Assembly: GCA_938017515.1 (NCBI GenBank)
Contig: CALIJJ010000060.1
Span: 18,633 to 82,632, forward strand
Length of the DNA: 64,000 nucleotides
Source: an uncultured Pseudanabaenaceae cyanobacterium
Lineage (GTDB): Bacteria > Cyanobacteriota > Cyanobacteriia > PCC-9006 > JAAUQQ01
Direction of reading: 5' to 3'
Made by a program: the position numbers and the translations under genes. How positions within the stretch are numbered: position 1 is the stretch's first letter; each line of letters begins with the position of its first letter. Of this stretch, positions 347-13,194 are shown piece by piece. The notes under the pieces are model-generated. The model was not told where the DNA came from, did not search any database, and saw only the letters and a program-made list of their open reading frames with translations.

Positions 347-3337
347 ATGGTGCGTCTAAAAGATTCCGTCGATACCCTTGTCAGCCTGGGGCTACCTGCC
401 TCGGGGGCAGGGGTGACGCTTCATTTCTTGTTGGGGGGACAGGTTGGACCGGCGGTGGTTTCGGGGATTACGACGGTGGGGGTGGCAGTGCTGACCCTGG
501 GCCGTCGCTTTGGCAAGCGGGTTTGGGCCAGGCTGGGCGATCGCGTCGATGAGCAAGCCGACAGTTTCGCGGACTGGCTGTTTGACCAGAGCAAACGCTG
601 GGGCAAGCGGACCTGGTGGATGCTCTCGGGCAACTTCCGCGAGAAATACAATCGCAGCTTGATCTATCGCTACCGCGACTACCAAACCCAGGGACTCACG
701 ACCCGAGGCCCCTTTGCCCTCGATTTGGAGAAGCTTTTTGTTCCCCTACGCCTGCGGCCCGAGAGCATTGGACAAATTTCAGGGGATTTGGTCGGTCGCC
801 CTGATGCTGGGGGCAGCTGGAATATTTGGCAGTTTCTGGTTGCCCTCAAAACCCAGAGTGCCTTCGATCGCCTGGTGATTCTCGGCGGTCCGGGCTCCGG
901 TAAAACGACGTTGCTGGAGCATGTGGCCCTGATCTTCGCCAAGGGCACCCACAAACGCTATTCTCGCCAGCTCCAGAGCTACGTACCGGTGCTGATCTGT
1001 TTGCGGGAAGTGCGAGATTTGATCACGGCGGATAAACCGGCTTCCCTACAGTCGTTGATTGAGCAACAGCTCCAGATTGATGGCATTACGCCACCCCCCA
1101 ACTGGTTTCAGGAAATGCTCCAGCAGGGCAAGTGCCTGATCATGATCGATGGACTGGATGAGGTCTCCAGCCTGAAGCAGCGCCGTAAGGTGAGCCAGTG
1201 GGTCACACAACAAATGCGGCTCCACCGTGAGAATCCGTTTATTATTACCTCCCGCCCGTTTGGCTATCGCGATGCACCGCTAGAGGGGGCGACAACCCTA
1301 GATATCAAGCCGTTTAACCTGTCCCAGATGCAGCAGTTTATCCGCAGTTGGTATCTGCAAACGGAAACGGTGCGCCATCTGGGCAAGGCCGATCGTGGCG
1401 TGAAGAAAACAGCCCAAACCCAGTCCGAAGATCTCATCCGCCGCATCCAAAATAATCCGTCCCTGGCAGCCATGGCGCTGAATCCGCTGCTGCTGACGAT
1501 GATTGCCACGGTTCACGCCTATCGAGGCGCTTTGCCGGGAAAACGGGTGGAGCTGTATAGCGAAATTTGTGATGTGCTGTTGGGCCGTCGCCAGGATATG
1601 AAGGGGATTCCCGATATTCTGACGGCGGATCAGAAAAAGAAAGTTCTCCAAACGTTGGCCTTCAAGTTAATGAAGCGGCGCACCCGCACGTTTCGGCTGT
1701 TTGCAGGCAAGGTGTTGATTGAGAAACAGTTGGCTGAGGTGGCCAAGGGCGAGATTTCCGCGGAAGAATTCATCCAGCACATTGAGCAAACCAGTGGTCT
1801 CTTGGTAGAGCGCCATCCCGGTGTGTATGAATTTGCCCATAAGAGTTTGCAGGAGTATCTGGCGGCGGTGCAGGTGCGCGTGCTGAACCGGGAGTATGAG
1901 CTGACGCGCAATATTGATGACCCATGGTGGGAGGAAACGATTCGACTCTATGCGGCCCAAAATGATTCCAGCAATTTGATTTGGGCGGCACTCCAGCAGA
2001 ATTCGGTCAAAGCCCTGTCCGTGGCCTATGACTGTTTGGAGGAAGCGGAAAGTGTCAGCAAGGACGTACGCAATGATCTGGAAGGACGCCTCGGTGCGGG
2101 GCTCGAATCATCGAAGCCAGAGATCTTTAAGTTGGCAGCGGAGGTAAAGCTAGAGCGGCGGCTCAAGCGCTTGCTGCGTTTGGATGAGAAGACGGACATT
2201 GATTTGACCTATATCTCCTGTGCGGAGTACCAGCTCTTTCTCGATGAGTTGGCCGAGGAGGCCAAAACAGGTGCGTTTCCGAACCAGCAGTTTCGCCAGC
2301 CGGACCACTGGAAGGAGCACCGCTTTCCCCATGGGTCTGCCAAGGCGGCGATCGCTGGTCTCCGAGCCAGTGATGCCCAGGCCTTTTGTGATTGGCTCAC
2401 CCAGCGGATCAATAGCCTGGGCTCGATCTACCTGGAAGCAGGGGTGACGGTTGTTGCGGGTCCCGTCAGAGTCCGTCTACCGTCTGCCCAGGAGTTGCGA
2501 GATCATCCGGTTTCATCGCCCCATGCCGACAAGCTCAGCAGTTGGTACAACAATTCTTCTGGCGCAACCAGGACGGTTGATCTCACCAGGACTGGTGATC
2601 GGATGGCTGTGGAACTGATGGTTGAGCAGCCACCTGCCATTCGAGTCCCGGGAGCAACGGAAGAGGACGAAGGAGGCCCAGATGAGACGCGCTTTGGTCG
2701 CAAGTCCAAACGACATTCTCCCTTGGCGGCCCAGCTTATTGAGCAGATCGTCCAGGATACGAGCCTAATTTTTGACCCCATCTTGCGTCATGTGCTGACG
2801 CTGAATAATGTTCTCATTTACGATTCTGTCGATGATGTTTTGTCCCAGGCATTGGATGTGCAGAAGGACCCCTTGCGAACCCTAGAGCGGGATACAGCCC
2901 TGAGCAATGTGCGAGGACTGGCGCTTTCGGGCCGCGATGGAGCGGAGCTGAGCCGCGATCGTGACCTCATCCTGCGTTTAGCGGAGGAGTGGGGCAAAGA
3001 GGTGGAGCAAAAGGCGATCGCTGCCCTTAACCGAAATCCTAAGTTGCATCAAAAACTATCGGGGAATAAGCCCCTGCTTCCTGCTCCAGAAATTTTAATG
3101 GTCTGTGCGTTCTGGCGCATGCTGGCAGAATTCTATGACACTCTGTCGAAGAAGCGGCGGTTGGTGCGCCAGAATGCGATTATTCCAGAGGACTGTAAGC
3201 GTTGGCGGCGTCAGTATCTCGACCACTGCGAGGATGTGCTGCGATTTTATGTGTTTTTGGCGTTGAAGGACGAGCGCCGCTTGGGTCGGGCGGAGGCTTG
3301 GGAGAGCTTGCGGATTGTGCGCGCCACTCGCTCCTAG
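347..3337 (+). CDS. NACHT-family STAND NTPase (bacterial NLR-like) with hydrophobic N-terminus and FGE-sulfatase-like fragment
   Basis: 996 aa ORF. Walker A GGPGSGKTTLLEH (nt 884-907), Walker B CLIMIDGLDEV, and the FIITSRPFGY motif typical of NACHT. Residues 12-52 are hydrophobic. Residues 621-720 (YQLFLDE, AQAFCDWL, VRLPSAQEL) resemble the N-terminal half of the FGE-sulfatase fold. Confidence 0.85.
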   Translation: MVRLKDSVDTLVSLGLPASGAGVTLHFLLGGQVGPAVVSGITTVGVAVLTLGRRFGKRVWARLGDRVDEQADSFADWLFDQSKRWGKRTWWMLSGNFREKYNRSLIYRYRDYQTQGLTTRGPFALDLEKLFVPLRLRPESIGQISGDLVGRPDAGGSWNIWQFLVALKTQSAFDRLVILGGPGSGKTTLLEHVALIFAKGTHKRYSRQLQSYVPVLICLREVRDLITADKPASLQSLIEQQLQIDGITPPPNWFQEMLQQGKCLIMIDGLDEVSSLKQRRKVSQWVTQQMRLHRENPFIITSRPFGYRDAPLEGATTLDIKPFNLSQMQQFIRSWYLQTETVRHLGKADRGVKKTAQTQSEDLIRRIQNNPSLAAMALNPLLLTMIATVHAYRGALPGKRVELYSEICDVLLGRRQDMKGIPDILTADQKKKVLQTLAFKLMKRRTRTFRLFAGKVLIEKQLAEVAKGEISAEEFIQHIEQTSGLLVERHPGVYEFAHKSLQEYLAAVQVRVLNREYELTRNIDDPWWEETIRLYAAQNDSSNLIWAALQQNSVKALSVAYDCLEEAESVSKDVRNDLEGRLGAGLESSKPEIFKLAAEVKLERRLKRLLRLDEKTDIDLTYISCAEYQLFLDELAEEAKTGAFPNQQFRQPDHWKEHRFPHGSAKAAIAGLRASDAQAFCDWLTQRINSLGSIYLEAGVTVVAGPVRVRLPSAQELRDHPVSSPHADKLSSWYNNSSGATRTVDLTRTGDRMAVELMVEQPPAIRVPGATEEDEGGPDETRFGRKSKRHSPLAAQLIEQIVQDTSLIFDPILRHVLTLNNVLIYDSVDDVLSQALDVQKDPLRTLERDTALSNVRGLALSGRDGAELSRDRDLILRLAEEWGKEVEQKAIAALNRNPKLHQKLSGNKPLLPAPEILMVCAFWRMLAEFYDTLSKKRRLVRQNAIIPEDCKRWRRQYLDHCEDVLRFYVFLALKDERRLGRAEAWESLRIVRATRS

Positions 3338-3364
3338 CATGATTGCTCTTATGTGATAGGAGCG

Positions 3365-3403
3365 GGGCGGAGAATGATGCCTGTCTCCGCCCTGGGTTGT
3401 TTT
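3365..3403 (+). terminator. putative intrinsic terminator after the NACHT gene
   Basis: GGGCGGAGA (3365-3373) pairs with TCTCCGCCC (3384-3392), followed by TGGGTTGTTTT. Confidence 0.5.
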
Positions 3404-3433: not shown

Positions 3434-4039
3434 TTAGCGCTGGGAATTTTGAGCCGCATAGGCCAGATTTTTCTCGTACTCGCTGACCTTGGTTTGGGCG
3501 ACTTCAAATTGAGGGTGCTCTGCTGGAACCGATGCCATCATGGCGATCGCACGCTCCCAGTTGTCTGCTACCTCAGTCCAGTCCGCCGAAGACTGAGCCG
3601 TCTGTGTTAGTTCTGCCGCCGCCATTGCAGAACTGACACCTGCATAGAAAGGCTCCGGCGCTTCTGCTGTGGTGGGCACTATCGCTGTCTGGCTGTCTGG
3701 CTCAAAGGCTGTTTCCTCCCAAGTCTCCGCGTAGAAGGCATCCTGTTGGGCGAGTCGGGCGCGATCCGCCTGCTGGAGCAGAGCCGGTAAGGTAAGGCTC
3801 ATGCCGATAGCGCTGAGAAAAGCTGCGACGACACCACCCACGTTGTAGAGGAATGAGCGGCGAACCCACTTCCGGTGCCAAAACTTGATGGAGAATGCCA
3901 AGGCCGCAAATGGTAGGAGTAATACGAGAAATCCCCAGCCAATGCTTTCTTGAAACGCCAGCACAATGTTGGTAATGCCAAAAATAATCGACAGTAAGAG
4001 CCCTACAACAAAAAGCAGGATAAACGGAATGGCAGCCAT
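3434..4039 (-). CDS. hypothetical membrane protein (about 3 N-terminal TM helices, soluble C-terminal domain)
   Basis: 201 aa ORF. The N-terminal half is hydrophobic (AAIPFILLFVVGLLLSIIFGI, GWGFLVLLLPFAALAF, VGGVVAAFLSAIGMSL). No overlapping better ORF. Family not recognised. Confidence 0.6.
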   Translation of the reverse strand: MAAIPFILLFVVGLLLSIIFGITNIVLAFQESIGWGFLVLLLPFAALAFSIKFWHRKWVRRSFLYNVGGVVAAFLSAIGMSLTLPALLQQADRARLAQQDAFYAETWEETAFEPDSQTAIVPTTAEAPEPFYAGVSSAMAAAELTQTAQSSADWTEVADNWERAIAMMASVPAEHPQFEVAQTKVSEYEKNLAYAAQNSQR

Positions 4040-10839: not shown

Positions 10840-13194
10840 GTGACCATGGCACAGCTCCCGGAACTAGACCCCTTGTTTTCTGGCACTTTGCCAGCCGCGA
10901 CTGTTGAGGCTGCTCATGCGGGTCTTGAGCATTCTGGCAACGCTCAGACTAATGACCAGAAGAGAGATGTGCTGATTGTGGATGATGTTCCGCACAATTT
11001 GCGGTTTCTCTCAACCACGCTCAAGGAACAGGGATACCAGGTGCGGACGGTCCTCAGTGCAAAGATGGCATTCTCCGCCATTCGGATGTCTTTGCCTGAT
11101 TTGATCCTGCTCGATATCAATTTGCCCGATCTCGATGGTTATTCCGTCTGTCGTGAACTCAAGCTCTCCCCAGAGACAGCTGAGATACCGGTGATTTTTC
11201 TTAGCGCCCTTGGCGAAGCAAAAAATAAAGTAGCAGCCTTTCAAAATGGTGGCGTTGATTACATCACGAAGCCCTTTCAGCTTGAAGAAGTCATCGCACG
11301 GGTGGGCCTACAGTTTAGGCTGAAGGAACTCGCAGAAGATTTGCGTCAGAAAAATCTTCAACTCGTTCAGTTGGCTCAGCATCTAAAGCGACAGAATGAT
11401 GAATTGTCGCAAGCGAGAAAGGCTGCTGATTGTGCGAGTCAGGCCAAAAGTGAGTTTCTCTCATGCGTGAGTCATGAGTTGAGAACGCCCCTGACTGCGA
11501 TTCTGGGGTTTAACCAACTGCTCATGGGAGATCAAGACATTACGGTCCATCAGAGAGAGACGATGGGGATTATCGATCGCAGTGGTAAGCATCTCCTCAA
11601 TTTGATCAATGAAGTGCTGGACCTGTCAAAAATTGAAGCCAACCGTACGGGGCTCAATCTTGAGGTCTTTGACCTGAAAGATTCCCTGTCTGGACTCCGC
11701 CAGATGTTTCTTTTAGAGGCTGAGGCCAAGGGACTGGACTTGTCTCTCGATTATGGAATGAATGTGCCTCAGAGGGTCCGGGCCGACGAGCAAAAGATCC
11801 GCCAAATCATCATTAACCTATTGGGGAATGCTTTGAAGTTCACTGCGGCTGGATTTGTTCGTCTTTCATTGCAAGCCCAGGAACTTGGCGGTGATGCTGT
11901 TCGTTTGTGTCTTATTGTCGAAGATTCTGGCCCAGGCATTACTGAAGCAGATTCTGCGTTGCTGTTTGAACCTTTTCGTCAAACCCAGGTAGGGCAGCAA
12001 GCACAGCAAGGAACGGGTCTTGGTCTCTGCTTGAGTCGTCAGTTTGCCCAGCTCATGGGCGGCGATATTCATTTGGACAGCCAGGTGGGTCAAGGCAGTC
12101 GGTTCATTGTGGAACTGGATTGTGAGATTGCTCAGGCTGATGCGGTTTCCTGCGCTGCAGTGTCATCCCATGAAGGACCCGATGAGGTCGGGCAGACGAA
12201 TACGACATTCTCCGATCTGACGACGTTGTCCGATCCGACGACGGGGACCGATCCGACGACGTGGGCCGAAGCGATGAATGGAGAAAGTTCTGCCCAAGAC
12301 GCGAGGGTGTTGGAGGAAGCCTCAACGGAAGCATTATCTGTCAAGCAGTTGCGGCCTTCTGCTCAGGTCACTTCAGTGTGTCGCCAGCTCAAGGTGTTGG
12401 TGGTTGATGATCACCTTGAAAGCCGTATGCTGTTGGTCCAATTGCTAGAGTCGGCCGGATGTCAGGTGAAGGCGGCGGAGACGGGGGCTGAGGCGATCGC
12501 ATGTGATGCCGAGTGGCAACCCCAGCTCATTTGGATGGATCTGAGGCTGCCTGATATGGATGGTCAGACTGCGATTCAGCAGATCAAACAGCGTATCTCA
12601 GGTCATCAGCCAACCGACCACCCCACTCACATCGTTGCGACTACTGCCAGTGTTTATGACAAGGCGCAGCTATTGGCCGCAGAGCAAAGTTGTGATGGCT
12701 TGATTCGGAAGCCATTTGCTGTGAGTCAAATTTGGGACAAGATTGCTGAATTGTTTGTGCACGATGCATCTTTGGAGCGTTCTTCCCCAGCCTCTACTGC
12801 CCCAGCCTCTTCTGCCCCAGTCTCTAATGATGCAACGGAAGTCTTGCCTCGGCAGAGTACGCTCTCTTCCTGGTCTACTCATCAGCAGTCTTGTTTTATG
12901 GAGCAACTGGAACGGATGCCTCAGTCATGGCTGAAGCGTTTGTATTATTCCAGCCTAGCCTTGGATGAATCTGATTCGCAGGAGCTACTGCTGCTCATCC
13001 CTGAGGATTGCCCGCAACTGAAACAGCGATTGGATGACCTATTCAAAAATCTTCGCTACGACATGATTTTTGCGATTTTGGATCAGCTAGGTGTGGAACC
13101 CGAACCGCTACTTCAGGATTCATCCCTCGAATATTCATCTGTTGATGAGTCGTCGGTCCAGCATTCTCCGCTTGAGGGTTGTTCCGTCAGCTAA
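10840..13194 (+). CDS. hybrid histidine kinase / response regulator (REC-coiled coil-HisKA-HATPase-REC plus C-terminal domain)
   Basis: 784 aa. The N-terminal receiver has VLIVDDVPHN ... DLILLDINLPDLDG ... DYITKPF. H-box SEFLSCVSHELRTPLTAILGF, plus LLGNALKFT and GTGLGLCLSRQ. The second receiver has VLVVDDHLES ... LIWMDLRLPDMDG. GTG at 10840 or ATG at 10846 could be the start. Confidence 0.9.
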   Translation: MTMAQLPELDPLFSGTLPAATVEAAHAGLEHSGNAQTNDQKRDVLIVDDVPHNLRFLSTTLKEQGYQVRTVLSAKMAFSAIRMSLPDLILLDINLPDLDGYSVCRELKLSPETAEIPVIFLSALGEAKNKVAAFQNGGVDYITKPFQLEEVIARVGLQFRLKELAEDLRQKNLQLVQLAQHLKRQNDELSQARKAADCASQAKSEFLSCVSHELRTPLTAILGFNQLLMGDQDITVHQRETMGIIDRSGKHLLNLINEVLDLSKIEANRTGLNLEVFDLKDSLSGLRQMFLLEAEAKGLDLSLDYGMNVPQRVRADEQKIRQIIINLLGNALKFTAAGFVRLSLQAQELGGDAVRLCLIVEDSGPGITEADSALLFEPFRQTQVGQQAQQGTGLGLCLSRQFAQLMGGDIHLDSQVGQGSRFIVELDCEIAQADAVSCAAVSSHEGPDEVGQTNTTFSDLTTLSDPTTGTDPTTWAEAMNGESSAQDARVLEEASTEALSVKQLRPSAQVTSVCRQLKVLVVDDHLESRMLLVQLLESAGCQVKAAETGAEAIACDAEWQPQLIWMDLRLPDMDGQTAIQQIKQRISGHQPTDHPTHIVATTASVYDKAQLLAAEQSCDGLIRKPFAVSQIWDKIAELFVHDASLERSSPASTAPASSAPVSNDATEVLPRQSTLSSWSTHQQSCFMEQLERMPQSWLKRLYYSSLALDESDSQELLLLIPEDCPQLKQRLDDLFKNLRYDMIFAILDQLGVEPEPLLQDSSLEYSSVDESSVQHSPLEGCSVS

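Follow-up and report, generated by a model that had tools for sequence, protein, structure and literature searches.

Does a bacterial NLR-like protein still work as a receptor when it begins with two hydrophobic stretches in place of an enzyme and ends in what resembles only the first half of a sensor fold, and if so, what would it guard against? The question is raised by one gene in a 64,000-nucleotide (nt) stretch, here called the window, from an uncultured Pseudanabaenaceae cyanobacterium (assembly GCA_938017515.1, contig CALIJJ010000060.1, positions 18,633–82,632 of the forward strand). A single uninterrupted open reading frame (ORF) at window positions 347–3337 (+) encodes a product of 996 amino acids (aa), P0001. 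An earlier note had described it as a stand-alone NACHT NTPase with a degenerate FGE-sulfatase-like sensor. We find that the gene is an ordinary member of a catalogued NACHT family, in which it represents the fused form of a sensor module, and that the sensor is best modeled as an FGE/C-type-lectin (CLec) fold split by a long, largely helical insert. We hold the identity and anatomy of P0001, as laid out below, with high confidence. The features are as follows.

347..3337, + strand: complete ORF of P0001, a NACHT STAND NTPase with a CLec-type sensor, 996 aa
368..502, + strand: N-terminal helical hairpin, aa 8–52, two Gly/Ala/Thr/Val-rich hydrophobic helices (hydropathy, helices of the AlphaFold (AF2) model, positional conservation)
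515..856, + strand: conserved helical linker or pre-NACHT segment, aa 57–170, with W77, WW90-91 and YRYRDYQTQGL..FVPL (invariant alignment columns)
869..1351, + strand: NACHT NTPase core, aa 175–335 (PF05729 match and invariant residues)
884–907, + strand: Walker A motif GGPGSGKT, aa 180–187
1136–1165, + strand: Walker B motif LIMIDGLDEV, aa 264–273
1244–1258, + strand: sensor-1 motif ITSRP, aa 300–304
1367..2176, + strand: STAND helical and winged-helix domains, aa 341–610 (conservation, weak PF25521 match, AF2 model)
1832–1846, + strand: winged-helix motif FAHKSLQEYLAA with the invariant H498 (alignment)
2177..2557, + strand: first part of the predicted FGE-sulfatase/CLec fold, aa 611–737, with DIDLTYISCAEYQLF, PDHW, GLRASDAQAFCDWLT, RLPSAQE and W733 (orthologue and profile matches, models, structural alignment)
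2558..2716, + strand: insert, lineage-specific disordered stretch, aa 738–790, acidic/Pro/Gly-rich (predicted local distance difference test score, pLDDT, below 50)
2717..3286, + strand: insert, helical part, aa 791–980, a predicted bundle ending in a long hairpin (helices 913–935 and 947–978) with conserved W923 and Y968 (models, alignment)
3287..3334, + strand: predicted closing strand of the CLec fold, aa 981–996 (AWESLRIVRATRS; W985 invariant), with strand 991–994 in both models
3364..3403, + strand: G+C-rich 10-bp hairpin (3364–3393) followed by TTGTTTT (3397–3403), a likely intrinsic terminator between convergent genes

The NACHT core and the predicted split sensor fold

The Pfam NACHT family (PF05729) matches aa 175–335 of P0001 with an E-value of 1.4e-17 (64.4 bits against a cut-off of 26.7). 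The motifs quoted in the earlier note (GGPGSGKT at nt 884–907, LIMIDGLDEV and ITSRP) all lie where it had placed them and, together with the Pfam match, confirm its assignment to the stand-alone, NLR-like NTPases. Residues G183, G185, K186, T188, D268, D271, E272 and R303 do not vary among the 24 full-length homologues aligned in A1, nor does His498 of the FxHxSxQEYLAA-type motif in the winged helix. Since the Walker A lysine, the Walker B acids, the sensor-1 arginine and the winged-helix histidine are all invariant, the NTPase switch looks functional and the NACHT domain appears to be catalytically intact. The helical and winged-helix region (aa 341–610) is the best conserved part of the protein, being 74% identical to close homologues and 61% to distant ones. 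It matches the winged helix-turn-helix family PF25521 weakly and is modeled with a pLDDT of 85–94, compared to a mean of 77.5 for the full-length AF2 model.

P0001 itself has no match to the FGE-sulfatase family (PF03781) in a Pfam search, even at E ≤ 1. Its orthologues match this family at aa ∼607–710, over positions ∼38–118 of the 255-position profile only, with scores of 23–31 bits against a cut-off of 23.3 (28.7 bits for P0035). A profile of the module built from 56 sequences (A3) matches the FGE-like domain of ToxD (7spq) with an E-value of 1.2e-5, again over the first half only, and matches PorK and OvoA more weakly over the same half. The resemblance to the first half of an FGE domain that had been noticed in the sequence is thus genuine and is limited to that half.

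Two AF2 models, one of the full-length protein and one of the module alone (aa 599–996; pLDDT 72.7), agree on the architecture of the C-terminal region. Both consist of a lectin-type α/β half (611–737), a disordered stretch (738–790), a helical bundle (792–978) and a final strand (991–994). When the module model was compared with solved structures using VIA-align, the top 11 chains all had the FGE/CLec fold, with Z-scores of 8.1–10.4. They include PorK (10.4), CarF (10.3), ToxD (9.8) and TvpA (9.6), as well as PvdO, EgtB, SenA and pFGE. A Foldseek search of the same model against the PDB returned no match at E ≤ 0.001, the best being 7spq at an E-value of 0.2. The VIA-align alignments run from model residues 1–3 to 396–398 and, because they include the terminal strand, a split FGE/CLec fold closed by the last strand (..WESLRIVR) is supported by the models. 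The AlphaFold models did not show a contiguous non-lectin domain at the C-terminus, which the earlier note had listed among the results that would refute it.

The short relatives P0027, P0028 and P0034 (757–772 aa) show what the fold looks like without the interruption. In these proteins, only ∼30–40 residues separate 'GYWC', whose tryptophan corresponds to W733, from the terminal 'xGIRIVR', compared to ∼250 residues for the equivalent span from W733 to the end of P0001. Together with the structural alignments to residues 396–398, this closure bears out the proposal that AWESLRIVR forms the end of the fold. Between the two parts, about 270 unrecognized residues had been reported. The long insert does exist, at ∼245 residues (aa 738–980), and both models give it structure, with residues 738–790 disordered and 792–978 helical. 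The helical part retrieves just generic long-hairpin proteins (Snf7, PspA and similar) at a Z-score of ∼7.5, which is below the meaningful level for helical models. The insert is also the most variable part of the protein; over residues 738–790 even close orthologues are just 8% identical, with 57% gaps.

The second half of the PF03781 profile (positions ∼120–255) has no counterpart in P0001, and the helical insert is found instead. In true FGE, the active-site cysteine pair is located in this second half of the domain. As the catalytic half is absent, the domain would serve as a binding module rather than as an enzyme. In the models, the insert is placed at the position equivalent to the variable region of targets of diversity-generating retroelements (DGRs).

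At the opposite end of the protein, the hydrophobic N-terminus with two stretches was correctly noted (aa 11–29 and 33–51, with 19-residue Kyte-Doolittle means of 1.54 and 1.85). The AF2 helices (2–29 and 33–51) form a hairpin (aa 8–52) joined by GGQ and flanked on either side by basic-rich segments, MVRLK and GRRFGKR. The position of this hairpin is conserved across the 24 full-length homologues, and a 19-mer with a mean of at least 1.6 is present in 80 of 105 relatives, many of which reach 2.2–2.8. The linker that follows (aa 57–170) matches no Pfam family, and a protein atlas search with aa 1–172 was uninformative, finding solely unnamed clusters (best score 0.90). A classical enzymatic effector is lacking from the N-terminus, as had been suggested. 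In two relatives headed by a SEFIR or TIR domain the hairpin is absent (Kyte-Doolittle values of 0.58 and 0.28), and it therefore appears to occupy the effector slot.

A sensor module shared by fused and separate genes

The sensor had been called degenerate, a description that its distribution contradicts. The module, insert included, is kept in five or more phyla and forms 915 representative clusters at E ≤ 1e-30, and thus it is not a decayed domain. In species-representative genomes it is present at no fewer than 177 loci (cyanobacteria, Thiotrichaceae, Chloroflexota, Blastocatellia and others), and nearly all members of the module family terminate in (A/P)WEGIRIVRE. Two orthologues are interrupted by frameshifts, one in the same-genus genome G001 (L023:7518-10510; 600 + 451 aa) and the other in G004 (L029:1635-5037; 1058 aa plus a 169-aa tail ORF). 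Both come from metagenome-assembled genomes (MAGs) with only ∼4x coverage, so the frameshifts may be errors rather than marks of pseudogenes; for the same reason, we did not use them as a sign of decay.

The module also exists without the NTPase. About half of the new top matches (P0121–P0264; 77 of 144, counted up to 560 aa) are stand-alone module proteins of 300–560 aa that have no Walker A motif. These proteins start sharply at the module boundary (M..RF.LAA.V.L.RRL..) and end in the terminal motif. Of 76 loci (within L027–L105), 45 encode the module as part of a NACHT protein and 23 as a separate ORF. The most elaborate arrangement is found in an Anaerolineales MAG (JAVEWN010000007.1, L058:5291-15513), where a gene for a 626-aa NACHT core is followed by ten tandem module genes and then by a Mrr_cat_2-ResIII gene. 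The array genes encode 230–323 aa each, overlap by 4 nt (and are translationally coupled), and contain only the lectin half, the insert and ..FEGIRLVRE. The locus gives the impression of a single NTPase equipped with a set of alternative sensors. The stand-alone proteins, the split loci and the ten-gene array together identify the C-terminal module, at the level of sequence, as an autonomous and exchangeable sensor unit. As a separate observation, a conserved ORF of ∼1680 aa is the next one after the NACHT gene, ∼300–400 nt downstream of it, in four Chloroflexota MAGs (L065, L080, L081 and L102).

Among the candidates scored, 1209 proteins are homologous to P0001 at E ≤ 0.001, and many of them contain FGE-sulfatase, GUN4, TIR, SEFIR or EAD1 domains. 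The clade 1 entries in Table S1 of Kibby et al. (10.1101/2022.07.19.500537) include NACHT+FGS with an FGS of ∼80 aa, EAD1+NACHT+FGS+GUN4, and NACHT+FGS+GUN4+FGE-sulfatase. The relatives of P0001 reproduce these architectures, with NACHT followed by FGS and accompanied by GUN4, FGE-sulfatase, EAD1 or TIR. The same phyla are represented in both sets (cyanobacteria, Beggiatoa/Thiomargarita, Chloroflexi), and the STAND NTPase-FGS systems of Kaur et al. (eLife 2021, PMC8195603) likewise have a NACHT core followed by an FGS/FGE-type lectin domain. Thus, as judged from its architecture, P0001 is a member of the NACHT clade 1 'NACHT+FGS' family. The catalogue annotates an 'FGS' piece of ∼80 aa and, in the parts available to us, makes no mention of a P0001-type hairpin, helical insert or closing strand. 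In Kibby et al. and Kaur et al. (PMC8195603, PMC7159879), such proteins are predicted to be conflict systems of the antigen-receptor type, enriched in multicellular bacteria and often linked to DGRs. P0001 differs in having no DGR (see below). The only other NACHT protein encoded in the genome is a 979-aa Ser/Thr protein kinase-NACHT fusion on contig C109 (L002:484-3423, −).

Possible roles in anti-phage surveillance or in physiology

With slightly better than even confidence, we propose that P0001 is an NLR-like, single-polypeptide switch of the NACHT+FGS type with germline-encoded specificity, for which anti-phage surveillance is the most likely task. At rest, the protein would be a monomer located on or close to a membrane and kept inactive by the sensor and an ADP-bound NACHT domain. 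Binding of a specific macromolecule, derived from a phage or from the host, to the surface formed by the lectin half and the insert would lift this inhibition. Nucleotide exchange could then drive oligomerization, as established for STAND and NLR proteins, and cluster the N-terminal hairpins. The clustered hairpins would most likely disturb the membrane, or else recruit another factor. Specificity would be encoded in the germline, with differences arising as the insert varies and modules are exchanged, and not generated by a DGR. The layout resembles that of Avs1-5, bNACHT01 and other tested bNACHT proteins, which also combine an N-terminal output, a central STAND NTPase and a C-terminal sensor, and for which ligand-triggered oligomerization has been proposed. 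Unlike these proteins, P0001 uses a lectin fold as its sensor, rather than TPRs or a short SNaCT-type region, and has no nuclease, TIR or protease effector. The counter-invader role, taken by itself and drawn from family analogy, falls just short of an even chance.

Several observations weigh against this proposal. We found no experimental phenotype in the literature for any clade 1 member. PADLOC-DB v2 models match P0001 in the P-loop only, with E-values of 0.0027 or higher, and the defence-system search suggested by the earlier note gave no assignment; the NCBIfam model for EruA, with 42.6 bits, stays far below its cut-off of 1000. Few defence-type genes are found among the 124 immediate neighbours in ∼70 loci (two Septu PtuA/B, one ThsB-like, one AbiEii, two restriction endonuclease and three PIN genes), and the neighbour families recur in 9 of 79 loci at most. 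In the window itself the neighbours are of the housekeeping type, and the adjacency of the M20 peptidase and NACHT genes is kept in two genera. The hairpin, in turn, is only marginally hydrophobic in P0001, where the mean for helix 1 (1.54) lies under the usual threshold of 1.6. The summed Hessa-type score is ∼+3.5 in P0001 and its closest orthologues, compared to 0 or below in distant relatives. The N-terminus is modeled with low confidence (pLDDT 49–76), and in some relatives the hairpin coexists with a C-terminal TIR domain (P0061) or an N-terminal EAD1 adaptor (P0087, P0112 and P0115).

The main rival is a non-immune switch, inherited vertically, that monitors an endogenous ligand or a state of the membrane or of photosynthesis; we regard it as unlikely, although much of the genomic context speaks for it. 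Upstream of the NACHT gene lie phycobilisome (cpc) linker genes, FtsH and the M20 peptidase, and mostly housekeeping neighbours are found across the other loci as well. The gene is single copy with a G+C content of 0.54–0.58, similar to its neighbours, so composition does not make it the most accessory-looking gene of the window, as had been claimed. Close paralogous architectures contain the tetrapyrrole-binding GUN4 domain, and near-identical sequences with few scattered single-nucleotide polymorphisms (SNPs) are found in samples of two studies.

The M20-NACHT adjacency spans genera g1 and g3, as it is present in G001, which belongs to the same genus, and in the g3 genomes G006 and G004 (L029), and the C-terminal part of the protein is found in five of the seven other genomes of the family. 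A strictly conserved housekeeping context, which the earlier note had listed among the results that would refute its reading, is approached partway, but in genus g2 the adjacency is absent and the gene has a different location, and beyond the family its distribution is patchy (9 of 41 relatives overall). A physiological role is also harder to reconcile with the swapping of the conflict-type domains TIR, SEFIR and EAD1 among relatives, with the arrays of sensor modules that adjoin restriction-type genes, and with the concentration of variability in the sensor insert.

Downstream of the NACHT gene, and convergent with it, are genes for a 201-aa membrane protein, a pentapeptide-repeat protein and hybrid kinases. 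In the product of the 201-aa ORF (window 3434–4039, −), the N-terminal half is hydrophobic and probably multi-transmembrane, and the tail is acidic and rich in Ala. This protein matches no Pfam family and bears no relation to those encoded next to other family members; in G001, it does not occur at the corresponding position. The claim that the NACHT gene has its own terminator receives partial support. In the intervening sequence, a T-rich tract begins 3 nt after the G+C-rich hairpin, and an 83-nt stretch has a folding energy of −33.2 kcal/mol (z = −3.7), but a consensus scan called no terminator downstream of the gene. Promoter-like sites in the same scan were no more frequent than expected by chance.

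Possible output of the hairpin and source of specificity

Membrane perturbation, the output that had been suggested for P0001, is weakened by the marginal hydrophobicity of the hairpin and by its presence beside TIR or EAD1 domains in relatives, and we consider a direct membrane-perturbing output doubtful. As the hairpin is retained alongside these domains, it may do no more than tether the protein to the membrane, or pack as a soluble element, with the output consisting of the recruitment of an effector that is encoded separately and is not linked in the genome. Such an arrangement would accommodate both the coexistence with TIR and EAD1 and the marginal hydrophobicity within the clade of P0001. 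It seems quite improbable, since no neighbour recurs, no second protein in the genome has a similar N-terminal segment, and the SEFIR- or TIR-headed relatives replace the hairpin instead of adding to it.

We also considered whether the N-terminus might be a BASS-like amyloid signalling motif that templates a partner cell-death protein, given that it is a short, non-enzymatic segment on a bacterial NLR and that such systems have been described in filamentous bacteria. The segment is predicted to be helical and hydrophobic, however, the upstream gene encodes an M20 peptidase rather than a Bell-type effector, and no other protein of the genome has a matching motif (best match, E = 1.3). We judge this explanation very improbable. 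The search for an amyloid partner ended in its rejection, as no protein, adjacent or elsewhere in the genome, carries the same motif.

Diversification of P0001 by a DGR, as in many cyanobacterial STAND-FGE proteins, has only this family-level precedent in its favour and is close to refuted: the 93%-complete genome contains no RVT_1 match (control genomes did give matches) and no second copy of nt 2100–3400, no A-biased repeat over the module was found in 79 related loci with 8-kb flanks, and the position of the variable region is taken by the helical insert. On contigs from four metagenome runs, which belong to two studies, the gene differs at only ∼13 scattered sites, most of them transitions, and contains no patch of hypervariation. 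The reverse transcriptase and the template repeat that the earlier note had proposed to look for were thus not found, and neither was any A-biased hypervariation in the four metagenomes.

Two small patterns of variation are recorded here in their own right. Within the lectin half, three linked SNPs (G>C, A>G and T>C) lie within 13 nt at window positions 2260–2272 in three of the four metagenome runs, and they form the sole small cluster of variation in the gene. In Symploca sp. SIO1C2 (L044), an inverted repeat pair of 81 bp (3663–3743 versus 12391–12471) has 13 mismatches, 10 of which fall on adenines in one of the copies. The pattern resembles the template/variable pair of a DGR and lies close to a family member, yet it is located outside that member's sensor module.

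TvpA of Treponema denticola (PDB 2y3c), a DGR target, offers the closest comparison for this question. Its fold is the same as that of the P0001 module (Z = 9.6, root mean square deviation of 3.2 Å over 130 residues), and both are presumed to bind ligands without catalysis. The ∼245-residue insert of P0001 corresponds in position to the variable region of TvpA, which in P0001 is accompanied by neither a reverse transcriptase, a template repeat nor hypervariation. Unlike the fold in TvpA, that of P0001 lacks the N-terminal β extension and the second half of the FGE domain.

For the membrane, an analogy of function alone exists in the plant CC-NLR resistosome ZAR1, where N-terminal helices of the NLR could form a membrane-inserting funnel after oligomerization. 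Putting these threads together, the C-terminal module may be an undescribed type of bacterial immune-receptor cassette. In its lectin fold, a helical insert of 200–250 aa would replace the DGR-variable surface and carry the germline-encoded specificity, sensors would act in cis or in trans (up to ten per NACHT core), and the hairpin would act as a resistosome-like funnel that permeabilizes the membrane. We regard this combined reading as rather unlikely in its entirety and offer it tentatively.

Among the NLR-like receptors predicted in multicellular bacteria, cyanobacteria included, NACHT-FGS proteins rank with the most abundant, and the P0001 locus adds to them a clean, DGR-free, single-gene example. 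What is mildly novel is the finer anatomy of the sensor and the existence of the module as a separate gene cassette. If the cassette reading is true, the family would provide a simple system for studying how a lectin fold gates a STAND NTPase, and how specificity may be diversified without hypermutation.

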